Origin: Deltaproteobacteria bacterium
Lineage (GTDB): Bacteria > Desulfobacterota > Desulfobulbia > Desulfobulbales > JAGXFP01
DNA: 64,000 nt
NCBI GenBank assembly: GCA_020056965.1
Contig: JAGVGT010000083.1
Location: forward strand, 2,286 to 66,285
Reading direction: 5' to 3'
The notes beneath the pieces are model-generated. The model saw nothing but the letters and a program-made list of their open reading frames with translations, ran no database searches and had not been told where the DNA came from. Both the position numbers and the translations under genes were made by a program. Below, in pieces: positions 1 through 43,451 of the stretch; the first letter of the stretch is position 1, and each line of letters begins with the position of its first letter.

Positions 1-1164
1 CAAAAAGGCGAGACCGACCTGGCCCCCCATGCCGGCGGCCGCCGCTTTCATGTCTCCGACCTGCTCGCCGCCTACCAGCGCAACATCCCCGGCGGGATCA
101 GCGGCCTCTTCCAGGAGGTGGTGGTCATGGGGCTGCACGATATCCCCGGCAGCATCCTGCAGAGCTATGCCCTGGAAGGTAAGGTGCCCATCTACTTCGA
201 CCGGGAGCGGGTGGCCTCCCTGCGTCTCCTGCCTTTGGAGTGTCGGATCTATTCCGCCCAGGCCCTGGAGAAGAGGCGGGTGGTTCAGCATGATCCTGTC
301 GCCCTGGCCAAAGCGATCCGGGCCATCTGGGCGGTCCGGGAACGACTGGCTCCACCTTCGTCGGTTCCGGTGATTGCGGACCCCTTGCTGCTTCGGGTCA
401 ACCCCCATGGGCAGACCCCGGCCCGCCGCTACGCCGCCCTTGAGGCCAGGCTTCGCGAACTGGTCATCGAACCGGCCCTGCACCAGGGTCTGGCGGAAAT
501 TCTCTGGCGCCATCAGGATATCGCCCAGACCCACCTCGAAAACCTGGCCGGGCTGGTCCTGGTTGACCCCCAGGAGTGGCCCCGTTCTCAGGAATGGGAC
601 CGGATATTTTCTTTTTATGACCCAACTGATCGGTTGATCAAAATCCGGGCCGACATCTTCGCCGAGCCGGACCGTTTCGAGCTGGCCTTCCTGGTCGCCC
701 TGGGCGAGTCCCTGTTGGGTAACTATGCGGCCGCCAAGGAAATGCAGCCGGTGGTCGACGAGACGGGTCTGTTGGGCCGGGTCTTTCGGGTCACCTTGCG
801 CCCCCTGGCTGAGCGGCAGGCCTGGCTGGGTGACGCCGATCTGCACGACTACCTGCGGCTGGCCCGGATGAGTCGCTCCGAGCGCAATCCTCTGGTCTAC
901 ACCCGGCTGGTCAGCGGCGCCGAGGGCTTCACCCCGCCTGGGTTGCTCTTCGGCCTGGTTTACGCCTGGTATCTCGACAACCGTTTTGCCCCCCATATCG
1001 AATACAAGATGGCTATTCTCCGCATGGAGGTGCCGGACATGATCCCCGAGCAGGTCAAGGTCGGGGGCCGGCGGCGGTTGCTGGTCGATTTCTTCCGGCG
1101 CCGGGTCTTCGGCTTTGCCGATGTGGAACTGGGGCCGGAGATCTCGGACTGGAACGAAACATGA
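1..1164 (+). CDS. YvcK/CofD-like (UDP-GlcNAc-binding) protein with long C-terminal extension, 5'-truncated by the window edge
   Basis: Frame is open from base 1. QKGETD...FHVSDLL and VVQHDPVALAKAI resemble the YvcK motifs QxGET and RHDPxxLA. Confidence 0.6.
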   Translation, partial: QKGETDLAPHAGGRRFHVSDLLAAYQRNIPGGISGLFQEVVVMGLHDIPGSILQSYALEGKVPIYFDRERVASLRLLPLECRIYSAQALEKRRVVQHDPVALAKAIRAIWAVRERLAPPSSVPVIADPLLLRVNPHGQTPARRYAALEARLRELVIEPALHQGLAEILWRHQDIAQTHLENLAGLVLVDPQEWPRSQEWDRIFSFYDPTDRLIKIRADIFAEPDRFELAFLVALGESLLGNYAAAKEMQPVVDETGLLGRVFRVTLRPLAERQAWLGDADLHDYLRLARMSRSERNPLVYTRLVSGAEGFTPPGLLFGLVYAWYLDNRFAPHIEYKMAILRMEVPDMIPEQVKVGGRRRLLVDFFRRRVFGFADVELGPEISDWNET

Positions 1165-2066
1165 GCGGCATCACTTTGGCGGAGTACGACCCGGCCGCCC
1201 CCCGCCAGCAACTGCATGCCCTGCTTAAGGCGCCTGGAGCCCTTGCCGCCGGTCTAAGTGAACGGTTGCGCTGTCTGTGTCCGGGGATCGTGGTCAGTCA
1301 TGATTCCGAAGGCGAACTGCTGCTGGTGGCCTTTCCCGAGGCGGGTGAACGGGCGGTCTTTTTGCGGGCCCTGGTCGAGGTGTTGGATGTTTACTCCGGC
1401 GCTCCGGCCGGGACGGCCCCGGAGTTGTTGGAGACCCGGCTGGTGGCAGTTCCGGAGGTGAATGAACCGGAGCTGCCTTTTTCTCGCCACTTCCGCTTGT
1501 TAACCGATCCCACCCGCATAATTCCCGGCGAACCCTATCTGCTTCTGAAACATGGCACCAGCTTTGGCTCCGGCCGCCATCCTTCCACCCGGCTGGCCAT
1601 GGCGGCCCTGGATCGACTGGCTGAAGGCGCGGTGGTGTTTCCGGACCGGGTGCTCGATGTGGGCTGCGGTTCGGGCATTCTGGCCCTCGCCTGTGGATTG
1701 TTGGGGGCGCGGGAGGTGCTGGGGGTCGATATCGAGGCCGAGGCGCTGGCGGTGGCGGCCGGGAATGCCGAGGCCAACAACCAGGCCGACCGGGTGTGCT
1801 TCTCCGCCCAGCCTCTGGCCGAGTTGATCGGGCCATACGAGTTGCTGGTGGTCAACGTCACCGGCGCGGTGATGGGCGGAATGGCGGGGGAGTTTGCCCG
1901 CCTGGTTTGCCCCGGCGGCTGGCTGGTGGTTTCCGGATTGCAGGGGCGGCAGCTGGGTGAGATGGTTGAAGTGCTTGGCCGGTTGGGCTTTGCGGAGGTA
2001 GAGCAGTTTAGCGCCGGACCCTGGCGGGCCGGGTTGTTGCAGTTCGGCGGTTCCGGTTCGGTATAG
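1161..2066 (+). CDS. prmA: Ribosomal protein L11 methyltransferase-like
   Basis: SFGSGRHPSTRL and VLDVGCGSGILA motifs; ATGA overlap with the upstream stop. Confidence 0.8.
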   Translation: MSGITLAEYDPAAPRQQLHALLKAPGALAAGLSERLRCLCPGIVVSHDSEGELLLVAFPEAGERAVFLRALVEVLDVYSGAPAGTAPELLETRLVAVPEVNEPELPFSRHFRLLTDPTRIIPGEPYLLLKHGTSFGSGRHPSTRLAMAALDRLAEGAVVFPDRVLDVGCGSGILALACGLLGAREVLGVDIEAEALAVAAGNAEANNQADRVCFSAQPLAELIGPYELLVVNVTGAVMGGMAGEFARLVCPGGWLVVSGLQGRQLGEMVEVLGRLGFAEVEQFSAGPWRAGLLQFGGSGSV

Positions 2067-2115
2067 GACTTATAGGTCTCATGGTCCCTATGAGTCCCAT
2101 AGCTCCTGTAAGTCA
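2062..2115. repeat. Six degenerate 9-bp tandem units forming an imperfect hairpin between convergent genes
   Basis: TATAGGACT TATAGGTCT CATGGTCCC TATGAGTCC CATAGCTCC TGTAAGTCA. Confidence 0.6.
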
Positions 2116-2125
2116 GCCGAGCCGA

Positions 2126-2797
2126 TTATCTGCCCCGGTCAGCCTCCGGCCAGAGCACCTTGTGGAGCTGGATCTGCAGCCGCACTCCCAGTCGGTCGGC
2201 CAGGATCCAGTCGGCGAGAGTCCCCGGCTCCAGCAGGGCGGTCATCGGGGAAAAATGGATGATCCGGCGGCCGGGCAGTGGCTGGAGCCGCAAAAAGTCC
2301 ACCGCCCAGTTGTAGTCGTCCCGCGAGGAGATGACGAATTTTAACTCGTCTTCCGGGCAGAGCAGCAGCAGGTTGTTCCGGTCGAAACTCTCGCCGGTCC
2401 CGCTGTCGGGGCACTTGACGTCGACGATTTTTACCACCCCGGCCGGGACCCGGTCCAAGGGCAGGCTGCCGTTGGTCTCCAGGAGCACCCGGCGGCCGCC
2501 GGCCAGGAGGGATTCCATCAGCTGGTAAACCTCTTCCTGGAGCAGTGGTTCACCGCCGGTGATCTCCACCGGAAAGCCCGGGTATTCGGCGGCGAAGGCC
2601 AGGATTTCCGCCAGACTCCGGCGGGTGGGCACCTCTTCGTTGGCGTAGCGGGCGTCGCAGAAATTGCACTGCAGGTTGCAGCCGGCCAGGCGGATAAAGA
2701 CGCAGGGCTGCCCGGCGTAACTCGATTCGCCCTGGATACTGAAGAACAGCTCGGCTATGTCAAGCGCCGGCAGGGTCTTCACGGTAGACGACTCCAC
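2126..2797 (-). CDS. queE: 7-carboxy-7-deazaguanine synthase (radical SAM)
   Basis: ELFFSIQGES, CNLQCNFCD, ITGGEPLLQ, ETNG, QIQLHK; adjacent to queD. Confidence 0.93.
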   Translation of the reverse strand: MESSTVKTLPALDIAELFFSIQGESSYAGQPCVFIRLAGCNLQCNFCDARYANEEVPTRRSLAEILAFAAEYPGFPVEITGGEPLLQEEVYQLMESLLAGGRRVLLETNGSLPLDRVPAGVVKIVDVKCPDSGTGESFDRNNLLLLCPEDELKFVISSRDDYNWAVDFLRLQPLPGRRIIHFSPMTALLEPGTLADWILADRLGVRLQIQLHKVLWPEADRGR

Positions 2798-3324: not shown

Positions 3325-4683
3325 GTGGCCTTGATCGCCCCTTTCCGCGGCCTGCGTTATAATTCCGAGAAGATCGCCAATCTCGAAGAGGTGGTGACCC
3401 CGCCCTATGATGTCATCGATGACCAGGCCCAGGCCGACCTCCTGCGCCGCAACCCCTACAGCATGATCCGGCTCGATCTGAGCAAGAGCGTCAAGAGCGA
3501 GGAGATGACCGAGGGGCGCTATCAGCAGTCCCGGCAACTCCTCGACGAGTGGCTGGCGGCCGGAGTGCTGCGCCGCGATGAGACCCCGGCCATCTACCTG
3601 TATTTCATTGACTACCAGCACCCATCCGGCCGCCGCCTGACCCGCAAGGGGCTGGTCTGTCTGACCGGTCTGGCCGAATTCTCAGAGGGGATCGTCAAGC
3701 CCCACGAGCAGATCTTTCGCGGCGTGGTCACCGACCGGCTGAGGCTGCTCGACGCCTGTCGGACCCAGTTCAGCCAGGTCTTTTCGATCTTTCCCGATCC
3801 GCTCGGCCAGGTCATGGCCCTGCTGGAGCCGGCCCGCGAGGTGGCGCCCCTTGGCCAGTGTCAGGACAAAGACGGTTGTCGCCACGCGCTCTGGCGGGTT
3901 TCCGACCCGGCGGTGATCGCCCAGGTCCGCGAGTTGTTCCGGACCAAGTGTGTGTATATTGCCGACGGCCACCACCGCTACAACACCGCCCTGCAGATGC
4001 GCGAATTGATGACCAGCCGTCAAGGCGAAGTGGCCGGTGCCAGCCCCTTCAACTTCGCCATGATGTATCTCTGCCCCATGGAAGACCCGGGCCTCTCGGT
4101 GCTGCCGACCCACCGCTTGGTCCGTCTGCCCCGCCGGGGCGCGGCCGCCCTGGTCGAACTGCTGGCCGCCGGTTTTGTCGCCGAGGAGATCCGGGGCGGC
4201 AGCCGCGAGGCGCTGGTCGCCGAGGTGCTGTTGCGGATGGACGAGCGTCGCGCGGCCAGCATGACCTTCGGTCTTTACCACCCCGGCGAGGACCGCTGCT
4301 TCCTGTTGAGCTTGAAAGAGGGGCGCATGGAGTCCGAAGGTTTCGACTCGATCCCGCCGGAACTGCGGCAACTCGACGTGGTGGTGCTTTCCGAACTGAT
4401 CCTGGGTCGCTACCTGGGCCTCGACCATCACCGCTGCGAGGCGGAGCACCTGATCGACTACTTCAGCGACCCGGATGAGGCCCTGGACAAGGCGGTCAAG
4501 GAGTCGCAGGCGGGCGAGGGCGACAGCGTGGTCTTCCTGATGAACAATACCCTGGTGGACCAGGTCCGCCAGGTCTCCGACGCCGGGCTGATCATGCCCC
4601 ACAAATCGACCTACTTCTACCCCAAGGTCCTGACCGGCCTGGTCATGAACCAGCTGGTGGAAGGGGAAAAGGTTGATGGCTAA
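3325..4683 (+). CDS. DUF1015 family protein
   Basis: PFRGLRY, PPYDVI, PHE, IADGHHRY, MPHKSTYFYPK. Confidence 0.92.
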   Translation: MALIAPFRGLRYNSEKIANLEEVVTPPYDVIDDQAQADLLRRNPYSMIRLDLSKSVKSEEMTEGRYQQSRQLLDEWLAAGVLRRDETPAIYLYFIDYQHPSGRRLTRKGLVCLTGLAEFSEGIVKPHEQIFRGVVTDRLRLLDACRTQFSQVFSIFPDPLGQVMALLEPAREVAPLGQCQDKDGCRHALWRVSDPAVIAQVRELFRTKCVYIADGHHRYNTALQMRELMTSRQGEVAGASPFNFAMMYLCPMEDPGLSVLPTHRLVRLPRRGAAALVELLAAGFVAEEIRGGSREALVAEVLLRMDERRAASMTFGLYHPGEDRCFLLSLKEGRMESEGFDSIPPELRQLDVVVLSELILGRYLGLDHHRCEAEHLIDYFSDPDEALDKAVKESQAGEGDSVVFLMNNTLVDQVRQVSDAGLIMPHKSTYFYPKVLTGLVMNQLVEGEKVDG

Positions 4684-33939: not shown

Positions 33940-34293
33940 GGGGGCGAAACGGCTTCGACGGGGATATATAAGCTTGGGCTGCATACCGAGCTCTGGTTGC
34001 TCGTTAATCCATCAGACATTAAACATAATCGCTGACGATTATGCCTACGCTGTAGCAGCTTAATGCTACCGTTCCGGTTGACCTCTCCCGTGGGGTCTTC
34101 TAGGGGCGTCGCGCACACGGGATAGCCTGCCGGCTGCACCTGCCGGCCGAATGGCGAATCCAACAGCAGGATAGTGTCGAAGCCCCGGTCCCGGGCAAGC
34201 TTCGACACGATAAGCAATTTAACGGGACTAAGTATGTAGAAGCCTACAGGGGAGTATTTTCGGACCCGGGTTCAACTCCCGGCGCCTCCACCA
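33940..34293 (+). ncRNA. ssrA: tmRNA; tag reading frame ADDYAYAVAA* at 34031-34063
   Basis: 5' GGGGGCGAAACGGCTTCGACGGG; 3' GACCCGGGTTCAACTCCCGGCGCCTCCACCA; tag ending in AA; downstream of smpB. Confidence 0.98.
34268..34293 (+). repeat. attL core (26-bp direct repeat)
   Basis: GGGTTCAACTCCCGGCGCCTCCACCA, identical to 43426-43451. Confidence 0.95.
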
Positions 34294-34299
34294 GTATTT

Positions 34300-34343
34300 A
34301 GCCAATGATTTCAGGTAGTTATCTGGGGTCATTGGCTTTTTTT
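34300..34343 (+). terminator. Phage-supplied terminator directly after ssrA
   Basis: AGCCAATGA...TCATTGGCT followed by TTTTTT. Confidence 0.75.
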
Positions 34344-35489
34344 ATGTATCACAGCCGTATCACAACCACCGGTCTGTGTGAGGTTATAAACATTCTTCAT
34401 TTCCGCACCCTCGATCCGGAAGTATCTTTCAAAGGCTTTGTTCGTTCCGTGCATGGTCGCCCGGCGGATCTGCTCGGGGGAGATCAAGTCACGAAGTGCC
34501 AGGGCGGACGAATGCCGAGTCCCGCCATAAAGATCAACGCCCTCGATCCCCAGATTGTCACAAGCTTTCTTCCACCACTTATATAGGTATTTGCCGCCGA
34601 ACCGTTGGCCTTCCCTGCAGCCGCTGACATTGGCGATATGGCGGAAGAAAAATAGTTCAGGAAATCCTCGAGGCAAATCACAAATCAACTCGATGTCGCT
34701 GTCAATGATGGGAACAACCTTCGGTTTTTTCTCCTTAGGGTGGGGAATGAAAAAATAGCCGGACTTGATATCAATGAACCTCTCTTTCAATCCAAGCATT
34801 TCGGCCGGCCGAATCGAAATATAAGTCGAAAGCCATTTAATGCCGATCCAAATTTTAGGATTCAGGTGGTAGGAAATCCTTTTCACTTCATCCAGGATGG
34901 CCATCTGTGTTTCCTTGGATATGGTCTGACGCCAACCAAGTTCAAAGGATATCTCGGGAAACTCTGGGAATTGGGCCTGATTAATGACTCGGCGTTTTCT
35001 GAGCCAGACCCAGAAGGTATGAAGGCAGGATCTTATATTAGAACGGGTTTTATCGGAAACGTCCTGGGAGAAAAGGAAATCTTCAAGTTCAGCATAGCCG
35101 ATTGTTTTGATATTCCGGCTGCCCCAAGCTTTAACGGCTCGAGCCATATAGTTGGAAAGGTTGTCATAAGAACCAGGTTTGACTTCCTGCTTCTTAAGAA
35201 GAAGCCATTGGATGGAAAGAGTTTTAAAAGCTAATGGTTGTGCGGCTTGGTAATCTCGATGGTCAAAAGTTCCCTTATCGACTTCATAGCGCAAGCCGTC
35301 GAGAAACCTCTCGGCCTGGATGTAGTTATTGAAACGCTGCCGCACCAGGCGGCCAAACTGAACGGTAAATAATTTAGTTGCCTGCTGATCCGGGTGGTTC
35401 GGACAGAACAAGCCACGGCTGCGGCCGTCATAATGAAACTTAGAGCCACAAGCTGGACAGAACTGATCAGAAAAAATACTACCGCGCAT
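34329..35489 (-). CDS. Tyrosine recombinase/integrase with N-terminal Zn-ribbon-like motif
   Basis: IRPAEML, LYGGTRHS, MHGTNKAFERY; CPAC...CPNH; adjacent to att. The ORF extends to 35537. Confidence 0.88.
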   Translation of the reverse strand: MRGSIFSDQFCPACGSKFHYDGRSRGLFCPNHPDQQATKLFTVQFGRLVRQRFNNYIQAERFLDGLRYEVDKGTFDHRDYQAAQPLAFKTLSIQWLLLKKQEVKPGSYDNLSNYMARAVKAWGSRNIKTIGYAELEDFLFSQDVSDKTRSNIRSCLHTFWVWLRKRRVINQAQFPEFPEISFELGWRQTISKETQMAILDEVKRISYHLNPKIWIGIKWLSTYISIRPAEMLGLKERFIDIKSGYFFIPHPKEKKPKVVPIIDSDIELICDLPRGFPELFFFRHIANVSGCREGQRFGGKYLYKWWKKACDNLGIEGVDLYGGTRHSSALALRDLISPEQIRRATMHGTNKAFERYFRIEGAEMKNVYNLTQTGGCDTAVIHKKSQ

Positions 35490-35541
35490 ACAGAGTACCC
35501 CCTGCATCGAGATAGCTTTTTTAAGCAACAAAGTCAAATTT

Positions 35542-37339: not shown

Positions 37340-38434
37340 TTATGATGCCTTCTCTGAAGGAAGGTCGGTCTCTGGAATATCTGCGTATAGACGACCGTCG
37401 GTGCCGGTGATCGGATATGGAAACGTATCCTTGGTGAAGACTTGGCCACGGAAAACGAACAGGTATAAGATTTTTCCTTCCCGGGTATATTCAGCGTAAT
37501 TGAGTTTGACTCGATGGATTATAGGAGGAATGGCAACGAGCTCAGGGCTGTTTAAAGAAGATTGAGCCGCGGGGATCCCCGCAGCCGATTGTGAGCTCGA
37601 GACAACGGAAGCTCCCTGGTCATGACCAGGGGAAGAAGGGGGAGTTGATGCTTTAGCTTCGGAGGCATCAATCACGGAAAGGGCTTTCTGTTGGATCTTC
37701 TTAGTTCCGAAAATATCGCCGGTTGCCAGGCTGGACTTGAAAAAGATCATGTAGACCGTGAAGCCCAGGACAATCGGAATTGCCAAAAAGACCGGATGCC
37801 GCAAGACGTTGATTGTCGGCATGATCGATTGTTCTTTAATGTCTTTAGCTGCGTAGCTCTGATAACAACTGAAAATTTTCGATTTATAGCGGCGGCTGGC
37901 ACGTTTGAGAGGTTGGCCGGCAGTATCTTCGCCAGCGTAGATATTGCAGAGGTAGCCCTTTTGAACCAGGGAACCAAAAAAGTTGATTTTCCGAAAACAG
38001 TAATTCCACTCAGTCAAAGACCGGACGGCCGAGTCGATCCGTTCGGCGTTCTGGGTGATGATGACAAGGTCATAGCCTTCATGTCGGTGGGTGGAGGCCC
38101 AATCACCGAAAAGCCGATTTTTTGTGGCTTGCCAATCACGATTGCTGAAGTACTTCTGGACCTCATCAAGGACGATCAGGGAATTACGTTCCGGGCAATG
38201 ATCCCAAAAGTTTTCAATTACTTCACGACTATTGCCCAGATGATGAAACTGATTACCAAACTGAAGATCATCCAGGCCGGCCAGGACCTTGAGCGTCTCC
38301 TGACAATGAGGATCATCCATGCCATCAATATTAGTGTAAACACATTTTCCAAGGCGCAGGTTGTTAAGGATCTTCTCTACTGCTTCGTAGGTTTTGCCGC
38401 TGCCCGGGGTGCCGGTGAAAAAGAAAATGGTCAT
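37340..38434 (-). CDS. Zot-like morphogenesis ATPase (pI)
   Basis: GTPGSGKTYEAV, YTNIDG, IVLDEVQ, HRHEGYDLVIITQ, one TM segment. Confidence 0.93.
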   Translation of the reverse strand: MTIFFFTGTPGSGKTYEAVEKILNNLRLGKCVYTNIDGMDDPHCQETLKVLAGLDDLQFGNQFHHLGNSREVIENFWDHCPERNSLIVLDEVQKYFSNRDWQATKNRLFGDWASTHRHEGYDLVIITQNAERIDSAVRSLTEWNYCFRKINFFGSLVQKGYLCNIYAGEDTAGQPLKRASRRYKSKIFSCYQSYAAKDIKEQSIMPTINVLRHPVFLAIPIVLGFTVYMIFFKSSLATGDIFGTKKIQQKALSVIDASEAKASTPPSSPGHDQGASVVSSSQSAAGIPAAQSSLNSPELVAIPPIIHRVKLNYAEYTREGKILYLFVFRGQVFTKDTFPYPITGTDGRLYADIPETDLPSEKAS

Positions 38435-38438
38435 GATG

Positions 38439-38765
38439 TTACACCCTGGTCACGGCAGCGGGGATCAAGTTCAATAGAAGTCGAACAATCATGGCGCCAG
38501 CGATCAAAGAAGCACACTGAGGCAAGGCCAACTGGTTGACCAAATAGATGGCTTGTGGCGGCAGGTTAGTCCATTGGGCATATTGAGTGAAGACCAGGGC
38601 GGACAAGTCCAAGGATGTAACAAAAAGAGTGACAACCGTCAGGAGACCGTCAAGGATCATGTAAACAAAAGTAGAAATTACAGAGAAAAACCCCATAAGG
38701 CCGAGCTTGATAAAGCCCCATAGGGAGGAGAAAAAAGATCCGACGAAGGCAAGAAAGGTGTCCAT
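38439..38765 (-). CDS. DUF2523 family minor coat protein (pVI-like)
   Basis: Hydrophobic 108 aa ending IAGAMIVRLLLNLIP; immediately upstream of zot. Confidence 0.85.
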   Translation of the reverse strand: MDTFLAFVGSFFSSLWGFIKLGLMGFFSVISTFVYMILDGLLTVVTLFVTSLDLSALVFTQYAQWTNLPPQAIYLVNQLALPQCASLIAGAMIVRLLLNLIPAAVTRV

Positions 38766-38769
38766 TATC

Positions 38770-40431
38770 TCACCGATGTGAAAGAAGGATTCGTAAGGCC
38801 GCGAACGAGAAACAGACCAAGAAAATCGTTCGGCAGATGGAAAAAAGAGAATTGTAATTGCTCAGGTCAATATCAACGGTGCCATACTGACCCATTTCAA
38901 CGGTATAAACAGGTTCACCACCAGAGGGAATGTTGCCTAAGACTTGATCAGGTAGGGAAAAAAGCGGAGTGTGCCGCATATCATCGATAAATTTATTAAA
39001 GCGGTCAGTATACAGCGCCTTTTCTTCATCAGACGGAGTGTAAATAAAATCAGAACCATGCTGACAGGTACCATGCCCAGTTTTACAGTCAAAAGAGACA
39101 AAAACATCACCTGTTTCAGAACAGTATGATTGTTTCCAATTGTTTTCAGCATCAACACAAGCATTTGACAAATCACAGACACCAGTGTCAGCAACACAAT
39201 TATAGGAAACAAAAACCTCTCCTTCTGCCGAACAAAACTTTGCTTTCCAAGCCTCTTCTTTAGCAACGCAGCCATTAGGGTCGTCGCAATGGCCTGTATC
39301 TGTTACACAATCATAGTCTAATAGCTCTAAATTCAAAGCAGTACAATGAGACGCTTTCCAGGCATTTTCTTTTGATGTACAGTCGTTTTCGTCACGACAT
39401 ATACCGTCTTTAGTATCACAATCAAAAGAAATCAGTGTTTGACCAGGCTCAGAACAATTAACTTCTTTCCATAACTGACGATCATTATCACAAAGATCAT
39501 TGCCGCAGATACCAGCATCGGCAGCACAGTCATAACTGAGCAGCACTTTCCCCACAGGCTTGCAATAAAGGTTTTCATAGTTTTGTTTTTCGATCAGACA
39601 ATCACCACAAACGCCAGCACCAGCAGACCCATGCGCTTCACAATTGTACGAGGTTGTAGACATACCGGGACCATTGCAATAGCCTAACTCCCATTCCTTT
39701 TGAGCTTTAACGCAATCGGTACAAGTACCGGTGTTAGCGGCACAATCATAACCAGTAACTTCAATTCCAGGGCCAGGAGGACAATTAGCATCGCCCCAAG
39801 CTATTTCAGCGGCGGCACAGTCAGAAATGCATTCACATACATTATCGAGGGTAGTAGGATGACCTTGCGGATCAGTAGAGGTTACATCACAAGCTTGCTG
39901 CAAAGTTTCACCTGAGGGACAAGGACCAACACAAGAAGCCGAGATATCATCACAAGTTTTACAATAACCTTGGCATAATGCCGCATCCCAATAGGCAACG
40001 TTTTCGGCACCGCCACAGCTAGTTTGGAGAGCAGGATACAGAGCAGGATCACAGGGAGGATTTGGCCCACACTGTGGCAATTGGGCAAAACCATGATCAG
40101 CCTGGCTAGCACCAATGGTGGTGAAATCATTATCGACAACACCACTAACGTTACGATACGCAACGGTCGATGGACTACCCTGCACCCAACCGGCAGCCTC
40201 AGTGCATTCCCAAGAGTAATACTGACTGTTAACAACTGGAAGGCCCTGCCCATCACCAACAACAACCGCATCGCTACAACTAAAAGTTGCAGTCACCCAG
40301 GTACCATTACCGCCAGTAGATGAACCACTTAAAATTGCAAAAGAATAATGATAACAACCGTATTCAACATAGGCAAAAGATACAGAAGGAGCTAAAAAAA
40401 TACTAATAAATAGTGCCGCGAATAATTTCAT
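38770..40431 (-). CDS. pIII-like attachment protein with seven 4-Cys repeats
   Basis: Signal peptide (VSFA-Y), C-terminal membrane anchor RTIFLVCFSFAALRILL, position upstream of pVI. Confidence 0.82.
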   Translation of the reverse strand: MKLFAALFISIFLAPSVSFAYVEYGCYHYSFAILSGSSTGGNGTWVTATFSCSDAVVVGDGQGLPVVNSQYYSWECTEAAGWVQGSPSTVAYRNVSGVVDNDFTTIGASQADHGFAQLPQCGPNPPCDPALYPALQTSCGGAENVAYWDAALCQGYCKTCDDISASCVGPCPSGETLQQACDVTSTDPQGHPTTLDNVCECISDCAAAEIAWGDANCPPGPGIEVTGYDCAANTGTCTDCVKAQKEWELGYCNGPGMSTTSYNCEAHGSAGAGVCGDCLIEKQNYENLYCKPVGKVLLSYDCAADAGICGNDLCDNDRQLWKEVNCSEPGQTLISFDCDTKDGICRDENDCTSKENAWKASHCTALNLELLDYDCVTDTGHCDDPNGCVAKEEAWKAKFCSAEGEVFVSYNCVADTGVCDLSNACVDAENNWKQSYCSETGDVFVSFDCKTGHGTCQHGSDFIYTPSDEEKALYTDRFNKFIDDMRHTPLFSLPDQVLGNIPSGGEPVYTVEMGQYGTVDIDLSNYNSLFSICRTIFLVCFSFAALRILLSHR

Positions 40432-40733
40432 CTAACAACAACCTCATTAATAAGAGATGAATTAGGCACATATTGAGAAACAACAGGAAAATATGGATAA
40501 ACACCAATAAGTATTTCGCTGACAGTATTAGATCTGGAGCATAGAAAATAAAGCTGTTTTGAACGAAACGAATATCGGAGTGAATAGTTAAGAGAACAAG
40601 AAGAAGGATATTCAATAGTCAAAGGGGTAGTTGCAAGGCACCATTTAGCAAATCCGATTATCCAAAACAGAATAAAAAAACCAAGAATGAGAGCAACCAG
40701 GCGGATTTTGAAGAAAGAAGGTAACTGGAACAT
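40428..40733 (-). CDS. Phage hypothetical membrane/secreted protein, 101 aa
   Basis: N-terminal hydrophobic helix; ATGA overlap with the pIII start. Confidence 0.65.
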   Translation of the reverse strand: MFQLPSFFKIRLVALILGFFILFWIIGFAKWCLATTPLTIEYPSSCSLNYSLRYSFRSKQLYFLCSRSNTVSEILIGVYPYFPVVSQYVPNSSLINEVVVR

Positions 40734-40744
40734 GGCTTTGATTC

Positions 40745-40879
40745 CTAAAGTCGGTTGCTAAGCTTCTTGATCAGCGCATATGCCAGAAACAGCAGCGCGA
40801 TAGATACGAAGGGCAGGGCGATCTGGATAACGTCAGAAGCAAACTGTGCTGCATCAAAATTAGGAGGCAGGGTAACCAT
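40745..40879 (-). CDS. Coat-like protein, 44 aa (not in ORF track)
   Basis: MVTLPPNFDAAQFASDVIQIALPFVSIALLFLAYALIKKLSNRL; TGATG coupling; single TM plus basic tail. Confidence 0.75.
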   Translation of the reverse strand: MVTLPPNFDAAQFASDVIQIALPFVSIALLFLAYALIKKLSNRL

Positions 40880-40974
40880 CAAAAATTCCTACCAGATACG
40901 GCGATAACAAAAGCTATTGCCGTAAGCGTTCCGGCAAAGAAACTAACGATCTGGGAGAGGTCAGCAGCGGTCAT
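40879..40974 (-). CDS. Small minor coat-like protein, 31 aa (pVII/pIX-like)
   Basis: MTAADLSQIVSFFAGTLTAIAFVIAVSGRNF; ATGA coupling to the upstream ORF. Confidence 0.7.
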   Translation of the reverse strand: MTAADLSQIVSFFAGTLTAIAFVIAVSGRNF

Positions 40975-41081
40975 ACAAGTACGCGACCAATCTTGAAAAC
41001 GTAACCGATGGCCATGCCCGCGACCCAGCCGGACAAGACAAGTCCCATTCCCCAGGAAAACGGTTCCACGCCAAATTCCAT
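40971..41081 (-). CDS. Small minor coat-like protein, 36 aa (pVII/pIX-like; not in ORF track)
   Basis: MEFGVEPFSWGMGLVLSGWVAGMAIGYVFKIGRVLV; GAGG RBS. Confidence 0.7.
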   Translation of the reverse strand: MEFGVEPFSWGMGLVLSGWVAGMAIGYVFKIGRVLV

Positions 41082-41090
41082 AACTGTGCC

Positions 41091-41291
41091 TCAAAGGTCC
41101 TGGTCATTATTTTTAAAAAGCCCGTTGCCGCCCTTCGGGCCGGAACCGATACCAATATTAAAAACGTTCATAAGAACGGAAACGCCGATGATTATGAGTA
41201 AAACGGAGATGGCACCAACAACGAAGGTTCTGACATCTGTGGTAATGCCATCCATGCCAACGCCGAAAAGCTGAAAGAGAGAGTCGATCAT
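41091..41291 (-). CDS. Coat-like single-TM protein, 66 aa
   Basis: DGITTDVRTFVVGAISVLLIIIGVSVL; similar to 41558-41698. Confidence 0.7.
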   Translation of the reverse strand: MIDSLFQLFGVGMDGITTDVRTFVVGAISVLLIIIGVSVLMNVFNIGIGSGPKGGNGLFKNNDQDL

Positions 41292-41310
41292 TTACGTTCA
41301 CTTAAGGTTG

Positions 41311-41342
41311 TTCCCCGGGAGTCAAATCGACCTCCCGGGAAA
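41311..41342 (-). other. Hairpin downstream of the putative major coat gene (terminator or RNA stabiliser)
   Basis: TTCCCCGGGAGTC-AAATC-GACCTCCCGGGAA. Confidence 0.55.
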
Positions 41343-41353
41343 CGGGGAAGGGT

Positions 41354-41488
41354 TCACACCTTGTTGCCGACCTTCTTGATGAAGCGGTAGCCGACGAACA
41401 GAAGCAGGATGCCAACGCCGGCCAGCAATGCCGTGGAGATATTGCCGGAAAGAGTTGAAATGTCGAAAGCGGTGAACAGTGCAGCCAT
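41354..41488 (-). CDS. Probable major coat protein (pVIII-like, leaderless, 44 aa; not in ORF track)
   Basis: MAALFTAFDISTLSGNISTALLAGVGILLLFVGYRFIKKVGNKV; strongest RBS in the module (TAAGGAGG); hairpin follows. Confidence 0.8.
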   Translation of the reverse strand: MAALFTAFDISTLSGNISTALLAGVGILLLFVGYRFIKKVGNKV

Positions 41489-41557
41489 TTGATTTTGCCT
41501 CCTTAAATGATTGATATGGTTGGGTTTGCCTTCTGGCCAAGAAGCTCTGGAATTATA

Positions 41558-41698
41558 TTAGCGGTTCATGATCGTCCGGATGATCAGGCCGGCGCCCAGG
41601 ATGATCAGGCAGATAGTCAAAATGCCGGAACTGGCCGAAAGTACATCGGCCTTGATGCCATCAAACCAGGTGATGTCAATCAGTGGGGTCCAGGTCAT
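41558..41698 (-). CDS. Coat-like single-TM protein, 46 aa
   Basis: MTWTPLIDITWFDGIKADVLSASSGILTICLIILGAGLIIRTIMNR; GGAG RBS. Confidence 0.72.
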   Translation of the reverse strand: MTWTPLIDITWFDGIKADVLSASSGILTICLIILGAGLIIRTIMNR

Positions 41699-41793: not shown

Positions 41794-42099
41794 TCAGTCG
41801 TTTACCCAAAGGTCAGGGGTATGGTTGACCTTGCCGGCATTGTTTTTCCAGTAACGAGAAGAGACGGTGGCCTTGATATCGATCATTTCTTCAGGGCGGC
41901 CGAGCTTTCGCTTTGATTTGACCTGAATCTTGGTCGGGCTTTTCATCGGGTCGCCGGACGGAATAATGATCAAGGTCATGTAGGTAATGCCGTTTTCACC
42001 GTCATGTTGATCGATCTTGTCAATCTTGCCGTGAATCCGGACGGTGAGCATGGAGTTGTTGGGGGGGGATGCTGCTTGGTCTTTTGCGGGGTCTGCCAT
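41794..42099 (-). CDS. Single-stranded DNA-binding protein (pV-like)
   Basis: 101 aa, beta-rich; IHGKI...TLIIIPSGDPMKSPTKIQVKSKRKLG resembles inovirus SSBs; first gene of the structural operon. Confidence 0.7.
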   Translation of the reverse strand: MADPAKDQAASPPNNSMLTVRIHGKIDKIDQHDGENGITYMTLIIIPSGDPMKSPTKIQVKSKRKLGRPEEMIDIKATVSSRYWKNNAGKVNHTPDLWVND

Positions 42100-42714: not shown

Positions 42715-43296
42715 ATGGAAGAAACCATAACCATGCTGGGAGGTGTGTTTGCGTTACTAATTTCGGCCGCAATCATTCTTTCGGTTTTTTGGATATGGAT
42801 GCTAATTGAATGCATCCATAATAAAGATATAAAAGGAGCAGAAAAAGCCTTTTTCTTATTGCTTATCACGTTTTTGCACTGGATAGGCGGAGCTATTTAT
42901 TGCTTTAGCGTCAATAGAAAAGAAAAACTTGGATGTTTTGCGCTTATTTCGATGATATCAGCTGCAACAATAATTCTCTTTGTGGTGATCGGACTAATAT
43001 ATTCAACACCAGCAATACAGAAAGGTAATATCAACAAAACATCAATCCCTATAAGTCCTACTAAGCAATGAAATAAAACAAATCTTCCAGTTGGAAGAGC
43101 CACAGGAACCAAAACACAAACAGTAAATAAAACACCAAAAGACAGATATGTAGTGCTAAACAAAAGCGACGAAAATAGAAACCCCGCCAAAACACCAAAA
43201 GAAATAGCCAATATCAATACAGCAAAATACAGTGAACCACTAAAATCATGGATAGACAGAGAAGGAAAGGTTCATTTCTCAAATGGTGGTCTGTAG
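42715..43296 (+). pseudogene. Accessory membrane protein (PLDc_N-like TM helices + DUF4124-like tail) interrupted by in-frame TGA at 43069-43071
   Basis: FWIWMLIECI...IGGAIY; the frame stays open after the TGA to KSWIDREGKVHFSNGGL*. Confidence 0.65.
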
Positions 43297-43425
43297 TTAG
43301 CAGTAAAATGATTTTCAACCAAACGAACCAGCGGCCAAGCCGCTAATCTTAGTGTTGCGTGTCACAGCCGTGTAACAGGCGAAAAATAACTAATTGTAAT
43401 TACGTTTGTTTTTATAGTGGGACTT

Positions 43426-43451
43426 GGGTTCAACTCCCGGCGCCTCCACCA
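43426..43451 (+). repeat. attR core (duplicated tmRNA 3' end)
   Basis: Identical to 34268-34293. Confidence 0.95.

Follow-up and report, generated by a model that had tools for sequence, protein, structure and literature searches.

How many different small membrane proteins can a filamentous phage line up between its DNA-binding protein and its adsorption protein, and what could they all be for? The filamentous-phage particle is understood from the Ff phages, in which one shaft protein is accompanied by two pairs of tip proteins. The question is raised by an inovirus prophage in a stretch of 64,000 nucleotides (nt) from contig JAGVGT010000083.1 (assembly GCA_020056965.1, a Deltaproteobacteria bacterium of the order Desulfobulbales); "the window" hereafter means this whole stretch. 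The prophage lies on the minus strand, is ~9.2 kb long and has inserted itself at the tmRNA gene, at its 3' end. Between its gene for a single-strand DNA-binding protein (ssb-like) and its gene for a pIII-like protein of 553 amino acids (aa), it carries seven small open reading frames (ORF1 to ORF7; minus strand, 41698..40428). We found that all seven families are conserved coding genes under purifying selection, and that the cassette is shared by a whole clade of uncultivated inoviruses instead of being peculiar to the window prophage. Sequence comparisons place ORF1, ORF2, ORF3 and ORF6 in one coat-like group of four, with ORF1/ORF3 and ORF2/ORF6 as genuine paralogues. On this basis, it is fairly probable that the seven ORFs form a structural and assembly cassette that supplies extra proteins to the virion.

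The seven products are 46, 44, 66, 36, 31, 44 and 101 aa long, and both the lengths and the positions agree exactly with a preliminary description of this DNA that had been made from the letters alone. All lie on the minus strand. ORF1 (41558..41698) is coat-like and leaderless, with an acidic N-terminus, a transmembrane (TM) segment and a basic C-terminus. ORF2 (41354..41488), also leaderless, is the predicted major coat protein, equivalent to pVIII. ORF3 (41091..41291) has a coat-like N-terminal half and TM segment, followed by a variable charged C-terminal tail. ORF4 (40971..41081) and ORF5 (40879..40974) each have a single TM segment. ORF6 (40745..40879) is leaderless and lies just upstream of ORF7 and pIII, and ORF7 (40428..40733) consists of a leader-like TM peptide (the first ~35 aa) and a 66-aa extension. 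The ribosome-binding sites and stop/start overlaps noted in the preliminary description are present: a Shine-Dalgarno sequence AAGGAGG stands 8 nt upstream of ORF2, ATGA overlaps join ORF4 to ORF5 and ORF7 to pIII, and a TGATG overlap joins ORF5 to ORF6. A survey of Shine-Dalgarno sequences did not separate the families, 12-32 members of each having a core of at least 4 nt.

We looked for relatives in several collections. Neither the cassette DNA nor the pVI protein matched any of 50,697 phage records. The pI protein matched 185 phage records, all below 60% identity, and among the matches listed none reaches 29%. A pI search of species-representative genomes gave two loci (pI 60% and 53% identical), and two further genomes with relatives were found among 401 sampled from the phylum. 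A scan of viral contigs with the single pI protein found nothing; the pVI alignment later matched viral loci, and the pVI profile led to 19 confirmed viral contigs among 81 and to 46 confirmed metagenome loci among 100 candidate stretches. Members of the clade occur in many metagenomes and in genomes from three or more families within a single phylum. Relative loci are given here by their labels in this analysis (L-numbers). One hidden Markov model (HMM) per ORF was built from five syntenic loci, and the plus-strand ORFs of 70 loci were assigned to the best-scoring family. This assignment replaced a naive iterative HMM search, which was rejected because it drifted and merged ORF1, ORF2, ORF3 and ORF6.

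The module set is limited to loci with both ORF1 and ORF6, 32 in number (29 distinct); the presence of these two families in 29 of 29 is therefore given by construction. ORF3 and ORF4 are each found in all 29 distinct modules, ORF2 in 27, ORF5 as a separate gene in 22 and ORF7 in 21. The order is colinear in 27 of the 29; the exceptions are the window, where the break is an artefact of the extended frame used for its ORF5, and L043, which has an additional coat-like ORF. Between the window and L003, identity is 73% for ORF1, 58% for ORF2, 30% for ORF3, 69% for ORF4, 84% for ORF5 and 57% for ORF6; between the window and L011, it is 69% for ORF1 and 81% for ORF5. Small cysteine-rich (CxxC-type) ORFs, absent from the window, were seen between ORF2/ORF3 and ORF4 in L009 (6355-6531, minus strand) and L010 (4411-4957).

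Over all pairs of relatives, synonymous sites are saturated (synonymous difference, pS, about 0.5), and ORF3 shows a dN/dS (nonsynonymous to synonymous substitution ratio) of about 1 there. Selection was therefore recomputed on unsaturated pairs (pS 0.02-0.40), as pooled ratios of nonsynonymous to synonymous differences (pN/pS). With the number of pairs, which are not independent of one another, in brackets, these are 0.12 (12) for ORF1, 0.36 (24) for ORF2, 0.17 (8) for ORF3, 0.08 (11) for ORF4, 0.13 (11) for ORF5, 0.13 (12) for ORF6 and 0.37 (11) for ORF7. The check proposed in the preliminary description, conservation and selection of every single ORF in related prophages, thus came out in favour of all seven (21-29 of 29 modules, pN/pS 0.08-0.37).

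We then compared the seven proteins with one another. The window sequences were aligned by the Smith-Waterman method with BLOSUM62, and the scores were compared with those of 2000 shuffles made within the N-terminal, TM and C-terminal blocks. ORF2 and ORF6 score 65 (shuffles 21.1 +/- 4.6; z 9.6), a value reached by 0 of 2000 shuffles, and ORF1 and ORF3 score 52 (28.1 +/- 5.1; z 4.7), reached by 1 of 2000. Both of the coat-paralogue pairs suggested in the preliminary description therefore stand above the background expected of TM helices. Among the other 19 window pairs, only ORF1/ORF6 (10 of 2000) and ORF2/ORF3 (28 of 2000) gave low counts, and most lay at background. Family profiles compared by hhalign, whose probabilities are calibrated on globular domains, gave 96.9% for ORF1-ORF3, 94.5% for ORF2-ORF6, about 94% for ORF2-ORF3, 67% for ORF1-ORF2 and 47% for ORF3-ORF6. 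As internal controls we used ORF4, ORF5 and ORF7, which are separate single-TM families: all 15 pairs involving any of them stayed below 9%, and all 21 reversed-profile controls gave at most 6%. When the profile columns were shuffled within blocks, the observed score was reached in 0 of 100 trials for each of the five best pairs (z 5-12; z 11 for ORF2-ORF6). In one or two rows, ORF2 and ORF3 may have been mistaken for each other; for example, the ORF at the ORF2 position of L033 was called ORF3. The four coat-like families also share one architecture, in which a single TM helix separates an acidic N-terminus from a basic C-terminus.

Which of the four builds the shaft? Sequence comparison identifies ORF2 as the major coat protein of the VGJphi ORF44 type. 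VGJphi ORF44 matches the ORF2 profile with an hhalign probability of 96.1% over 43 columns, a score reached by 0 of 60 shuffles. The window copy itself matches the major-coat family phrog_6548 at an E value of 0.018 only; across the family of 34, matches to phrog_6548 come from 18 members (best 1.8e-6) and matches to phrog_3354 from 17 (best 8.3e-7). No ORF2 match was found in Pfam or in the PDB, where profile searches with the ORF1, ORF2 and ORF6 alignments gave chance-level hits only (E at least 0.5). ORF2 also fits the pVIII type in its size, in its charge layout and in the hairpin that follows its gene. Tandem duplicates of ORF2 were seen in L028, L030, L046, L058, L065, L066 and L067. The two copies differ least at synonymous sites in L058 (pS 0.08, pN 0.05) and most in L028 and L030 (pS 0.35, pN 0.07), so at least the copies in the latter two loci look selected.

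The hairpin (41310..41343, minus strand) is GC-rich, has 14 pairs, begins 10 nt past the ORF2 stop and has a minimum free energy of -24.1 (z -3.4). Of 29 distinct ORF2-ORF3 spacers, 28 have a hairpin of 7 pairs or more behind the last ORF2 copy; in 14 of the 28, a T-rich tail comes next (at least 4 T in the next 9 nt). The hairpin splits the cassette into ssb-ORF1-ORF2 on one side and ORF3-ORF7-pIII-pVI-pI on the other, and is probably a terminator, an attenuator or an RNA 3'-end element that closes a highly expressed ssb-ORF1-ORF2 unit.

By the same profile evidence, ORF6 appears to be an old and divergent duplicate of ORF2. None of its 37 members has a leader, and some, such as that of L009, are without the basic C-terminus that a coat protein in contact with DNA should have. 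In L043, an ORF of 175 aa (3646-4173) lies between ORF5 and ORF6 and consists of a signal peptide, an ectodomain of ~110 aa and a coat-like C-terminus of the ORF2 family. It looks like a natural "display" on a coat paralogue.

ORF1 and ORF3 resemble a different coat protein. The Pf3 coat, which is leaderless and 44 aa long like the window ORF2, gives 91.7% against the ORF3 profile, over 41 columns (0 of 60 shuffles); its match to ORF1 is weaker (49%, 1 of 60). The resemblance of the Pf1 coat to ORF1 is faint (33%). The ORF1 family has 29-30 distinct members and lies upstream of the post-coat hairpin. In the protein Atlas, the only lead for ORF1 and ORF6 is a Phage_Coat_B cluster at 0.87-0.88. 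The charged C-terminal tail of ORF3 ranges from 20 to about 150 aa in relatives. A hydrophobicity rule detects a signal-peptide-like leader in 13 of 30 distinct ORF1 members, ending exactly before a conserved xWTPLI motif; the leaderless forms, including that of the window, begin one residue ahead of this motif. For ORF2, leaders were detected in 9 of 37 members by the same rule and in about 14 by eye. The earlier statement that all of the small proteins lack leader peptides, therefore, holds for the window copies only: the absence of leaders characterises this phage, not the families.

ORF4 and ORF5 are adjacent, overlapping genes with leaderless single-TM products of ~30 aa, and they are our candidates for tip proteins. 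Residues 50-82 of Pf1 ORF83 match the ORF4 profile at 93.2% (36% identity over 33 columns; 0 of 60 shuffles), which identifies ORF4, at the level of sequence, as a homologue of the C-terminal TM segment of Pf1 ORF83, the protein at the PA0722 position in Pf4. According to the available portion of a study of Pf phages, PA0722 varies along with the structural genes (PMC7549136). In four relatives (L010, L033, L043, L061), ORF5 is the C-terminal TM anchor of a protein of 129-200 aa with a signal peptide and an ectodomain. Eight loci (L039, L041, L042, L046, L054, L073-L075), of which six (L039, L042, L046, L073-L075) belong to the 29 distinct modules, have no separate ORF5. In these eight, ORF4 is 153-179 aa long: it runs on into another hydrophobic stretch and an ectodomain, and it ends in a TM helix at the place expected for ORF5. 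ORF4 and ORF5 are thus apparently fused in some relatives.

These features suggest that ORF4 and ORF5 are tip proteins analogous to the pVII/pIX pair, in the sense of working like that pair and not of being members of its families. The f1 proteins pVII and pIX have 33 and 32 aa and no signal sequences, and they accept displayed peptides at the N-terminus only, as the accessible part of PMC10175506 relates. The ectodomain variants would suit proteins whose N-termini face outward on the particle, and ORF5 is a candidate tip protein with an exposed N-terminus. A complex prediction for ORF4 and ORF5 with alignments scored 0.03 against a mark of 0.32, which speaks neither for nor against binding. 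With a homologue of one in Pf1 and pVII/pIX-like behaviour of the pair, ORF4 and ORF5 do not count as new in kind.

ORF7 differs from the other six. Only its first ~35 aa are conserved, the 66-aa extension is not, and in most relatives ORF7 is a separate ORF of 34-40 aa. In L003, L024 and L025, the ORF7 segment is the N-terminus of a pIII-sized protein and carries an AxA-type cleavage motif; the window ORF7 and the L003 pIII are 66% identical, over the first 35 aa only. As judged from these sequences, the conserved part of ORF7 is a leader-like TM peptide that serves as the predicted pIII signal peptide in some relatives. ORF7 cannot be counted as a 101-aa gene of coat type. The idea that ORF7 is a decayed remnant of an older pIII was also rejected, as the similarity to L003 stops at 35 aa and most relatives keep the ORF of 34-40 aa.

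The pIII-like adsorption protein (553 aa; 38770..40431, minus strand) has its own signal peptide and cysteine-rich repeats. Its C-terminal 80 aa are 53% identical to the L003 pIII, and its N-terminal part is unrelated; over the full length, it is 29% identical to the L004 pIII. Across the 3' portion of ORF7 and the beginning of pIII (40200-40799), the GC content falls to 0.37, compared with 0.51-0.55 over ORF1-ORF3. Together these values suggest module exchange at pIII, in which a receptor-binding module was swapped. A chromosomal protein in the same genome has similar parts. It is an RHS-repeat protein of 1779 aa (PF05593, E 4e-127; DUF6531), encoded at L084 (also labelled L002; contig C81, 2696-8035, minus strand). 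At its N-terminus stands a leader very like ORF7, whose DNA is 74% identical over 80 nt; cysteine-rich repeats of the window-pIII type come next, and no inovirus genes lie beside it. The N-terminus of a phage adsorption protein and a host protein of the polymorphic-toxin type therefore share a module.

How does the cassette compare with known inoviruses? Eight annotated references carry one to three small genes between ssb and pIII (M13 3, Pf1 3, Pf3 2, RSS1 3, fs1 3, B5 3, VGJphi 3, Cf1c 1), in line with the earlier remark that model inoviruses have three here. The Ff order (M13/f1) is V - VII - IX - VIII - terminator - III - VI - I. As in Ff, the window has ssb, genes for small leaderless TM proteins that overlap stop to start, a coat gene, a hairpin and then pIII, pVI and pI, and ORF4 and ORF5 match pVII and pIX in size, in the absence of a signal peptide and in translational coupling. 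Unlike Ff, there are seven small genes instead of three, four of them coat-like, the coat is leaderless, the tiny pair follows the coat gene and hairpin, and comparison with pVII, pIX and pVIII detected no sequence similarity (at most 18%). In VGJphi and fs1 (Fibrovirus), the order is ORF81 - ORF44 (putative major capsid protein) - ORF29 - pIII. ORF2 is homologous to the leaderless, 44-aa ORF44, and the VGJphi/fs1 pI is among the best tblastn matches (about 26% identity). However, these phages have three small genes with no second coat-like gene annotated, and VGJphi ORF81 and ORF29 match none of the seven families (at most 8.6%).

In Pf1 and Pf4, the order is orf30 (PfsE/PA0721) - orf83 (PA0722) - coat (CoaB) - terminator - pIII. 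Besides the similarity of ORF4 to residues 50-82 of ORF83, the Pf1 coat gene is followed by an annotated rho-independent terminator. In contrast to the window, Pf1 has three small genes, its ORF83 gene precedes the coat gene and encodes a 49-aa N-terminal part that is absent here, and none of the seven families resembles orf30/PfsE. In Pf3, the coat is the sole coat-like gene and forms the shaft, according to the record annotation, whereas the window prophage has its Pf3-like proteins in addition to a coat of the VGJphi type, and one of them, ORF3, ends in a long tail. According to the accessible text of Roux et al. 2019 (PMC6813254), it is a generic feature of inoviruses to have short structural proteins, of 30-90 aa, that carry one TM domain; the paper counts 51 major-coat families, 47 minor-coat families and 934 putatively structural families, with each candidate family having its own set. 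All seven ORFs are of this type; that portion of the paper does not describe how many occur per genome, any paralogy or a fixed order of seven genes. In the portions of the filamentous-phage literature available to us, we found neither a fixed seven-gene cassette nor coat paralogues, and the supplements of Roux et al. 2019 may list the families. The earlier suggestion of an undescribed system can thus be kept in part: the cassette is larger than in the eight references and no description of it was found, but it is clade-wide and small single-TM proteins are known.

What, then, do the extra proteins do? We infer their presence in the virion, their positions in the particle and their stoichiometry from coat homology, gene position, the apparent fusions and the ectodomain variants. 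If the seven ORFs are a structural and assembly cassette, all seven products would insert into the inner membrane with the N-terminus out. ORF2, possibly with ORF1, which shares its transcription unit, would polymerise around the single-stranded DNA during extrusion by pI. The initiating cap would consist of ORF3, ORF4 and ORF5, the charged ORF3 tail pointing towards the DNA, and ORF6, perhaps with ORF7, would form the terminating, receptor-binding cap together with pIII and pVI, ORF6 acting as a coat-derived adaptor ring. A more specific and distinctly speculative version, which we think unlikely to hold as a whole, is that the shaft is not a homopolymer: the Pf3-like ORF1 and the VGJphi-like ORF2, as two abundant coat proteins from different coat lineages whose genes both precede the hairpin, would co-assemble, and ORF3 with ORF4/ORF5 and ORF6 with pIII/pVI would form the end rings. 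If that were true, the particle would contain at least eight protein species, with natural ectodomain "display" on ORF5 and on coat paralogues in some members.

Several observations weigh against a structural role or against the evidence for it. Pfam gave no match for any of the seven, and for ORF1, ORF3 and ORF6 there was no significant match among solved coat structures either; only 3 of 29 ORF1 members match structural PHROGs (phrog_2186), and ORF6 has no Pfam or PHROG family, with 1 of 37 members giving a weak match to an unnamed PHROG. The M13 proteins pVII and pIX reach at most 17.8% against the ORF4 and ORF5 profiles (hhalign), and whereas the Ff pair precedes the coat gene, ORF4/ORF5 follow it. 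Against the terminal helix of the long ORF4 forms, the ORF5 model gives weak matches (E 0.015 in three loci and 0.14 in one), and the other four were recognised by eye. The hhalign probabilities were not calibrated on TM proteins, and the window is in none of the pN/pS pairs. The window hairpin has no T-tract (2 T), which is why it went unflagged in a promoter/terminator scan whose counts equalled those of shuffled sequence. In a search of sequencing runs, no run recorded as RNA holds the stretch (one DNA run does, share 0.05). Finally, a small core inovirus protein can be non-structural: PfsE (PA0721), a Pf4 protein of 30 residues whose gene lies between ssb and the coat gene, binds PilC and thereby suppresses twitching and prevents infection by Pf, as described in the available part of PMC8764522.

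The precedent of PfsE gives substance to another explanation, namely that some of the extra proteins, most plausibly ORF1, ORF6 or ORF7, are membrane effectors that act on the host by superinfection exclusion or by modulating pili, secretin or signalling. Here the coat-like fold would have been re-used for membrane insertion and for binding a host membrane protein. PA0721 is conserved across both Pf lineages (PMC7549136, in the portion available), so conservation alone is no proof of a structural role, and the ORF6 forms without a basic C-terminus would fit an effector as well. On the other hand, Pf1 orf30, at the PfsE position, reaches at most 7.2% against the seven family profiles (hhalign), 27 of 29 distinct modules preserve the order of the four coat-like families within the structural module, and ectodomains on the N-termini of ORF5 and of a coat-like paralogue fit surface display better than an intramembrane inhibitor. 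We consider host effectors rather unlikely; the earlier idea of duplicated coats repurposed for exclusion thus retains a precedent, with no sequence support here. Less likely still, in our view, is that the extra proteins serve assembly and never leave the inner membrane with the particle, as chaperones for insertion or sorting of the leaderless coat, as partners of pI like pXI or as anti-aggregation spacers. The long, variable, charged cytoplasmic tail of ORF3 is hard to fit into a filament except at its end, ORF7 resembles a signal peptide, and the window lacks a pIV secretin gene, in keeping with an assembly that depends on further partners (L009 has a secretin-like ORF by eye). This proposal leaves unexplained why four proteins keep the coat architecture and why ectodomain-bearing variants exist. 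That the ORFs or their similarities are chance products of hydrophobic, compositionally biased sequence is highly improbable. TM-biased profiles can drift, as the naive iterative search did, and ORF3 has a dN/dS of about 1 in saturated pairs, but each ORF is kept in frame and in order across the modules at low pN/pS, and neither the block-preserving shuffles nor the three other TM families reproduce the similarities. The structural and assembly cassette, therefore, remains the reading that we favour.

The surrounding genes support an intact-looking prophage, which pI/Zot and the structural module place, by sequence, in Inovirus (Tubulavirales). The tmRNA gene lies at 33940-34293 (ARAGORN). Its last 39 nt (attL, 34255..34293, plus strand) are repeated at 43413-43451 (attR) as a direct repeat with 87% identity and a spacing of 9158, which bounds the element at ~9.2 kb. 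On the minus strand, in descending coordinates, the genes are ssb, the seven small ORFs, the pIII-like gene, pVI, pI/Zot and a 430-aa protein, so that the module from ssb through the small TM proteins to pIII, pVI and pI is all on one strand, together with the weakly matching 430-aa Rep-like protein. A divergently transcribed gene for a CI-type repressor (PF07022, E 2.5e-7) precedes ssb. The ssb-like gene (41794..42099, minus strand; phrog_8473 "single strand DNA binding protein", E 6.8e-10) is the pV equivalent and the upstream border of the cassette, and is syntenic in L003, L009 and L010. Downstream of pIII lie the genes for a pVI-like minor coat protein of 108 aa (38439..38765, minus strand; phrog_974, E 8.9e-9; phrog_306 "Ace-like", 1.6e-6) and for the assembly ATPase of the pI/Zot family, 364 aa (37340..38434, minus strand; PF05707, E 8.5e-30; phrog_197, 1.1e-46). 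The replication-initiator matches of the 430-aa protein are weak (phrog_33635, 6e-5; PF02486, 0.093).

Next to the tmRNA gene, a 402-aa ORF (34329-35537, minus strand) shows motifs like those of tyrosine integrases/recombinases by eye; no Pfam match at E of at most 0.001 was found for it. L003 has a similar ORF of 410 aa. Between the repressor gene and attR lie hydrophobic ORFs at 42715-43071 (plus strand) and 42897-43217 (minus strand), with a GC content of 0.35-0.37. The one of 118 aa has a weak PLDc_N match (E 0.001, under the cut-off), and these ORFs may be cargo genes of the prophage. The window prophage has no secretin gene and therefore probably depends on a secretin of the host. In L009 (genome G353), a 548-aa ORF after pI (835-2481, minus strand) was judged secretin-like by eye from its N-terminal sequence.

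Small proteins with a single TM domain are a known hallmark of inoviruses; what appears to be new is a clade-wide cassette of seven genes with coat paralogues. Genes of 31-46 aa are easily overlooked by gene callers, which is of practical concern for annotation. Pf1 ORF83/PA0722, from a group of phages with medical relevance, gains a conserved partner context from the ORF4-ORF5 pair, its apparent fusions and its ectodomain variants. Natural N-terminal display on small coat-type proteins would be of interest for phage-display engineering. Four of the seven proteins descend from coat proteins or closely resemble them, which shows that duplication and specialisation of the coat gene took place more than once. 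The cassette thereby hints at a more elaborate virus particle, and predicts extra virion or assembly components that are found in no solved structure.

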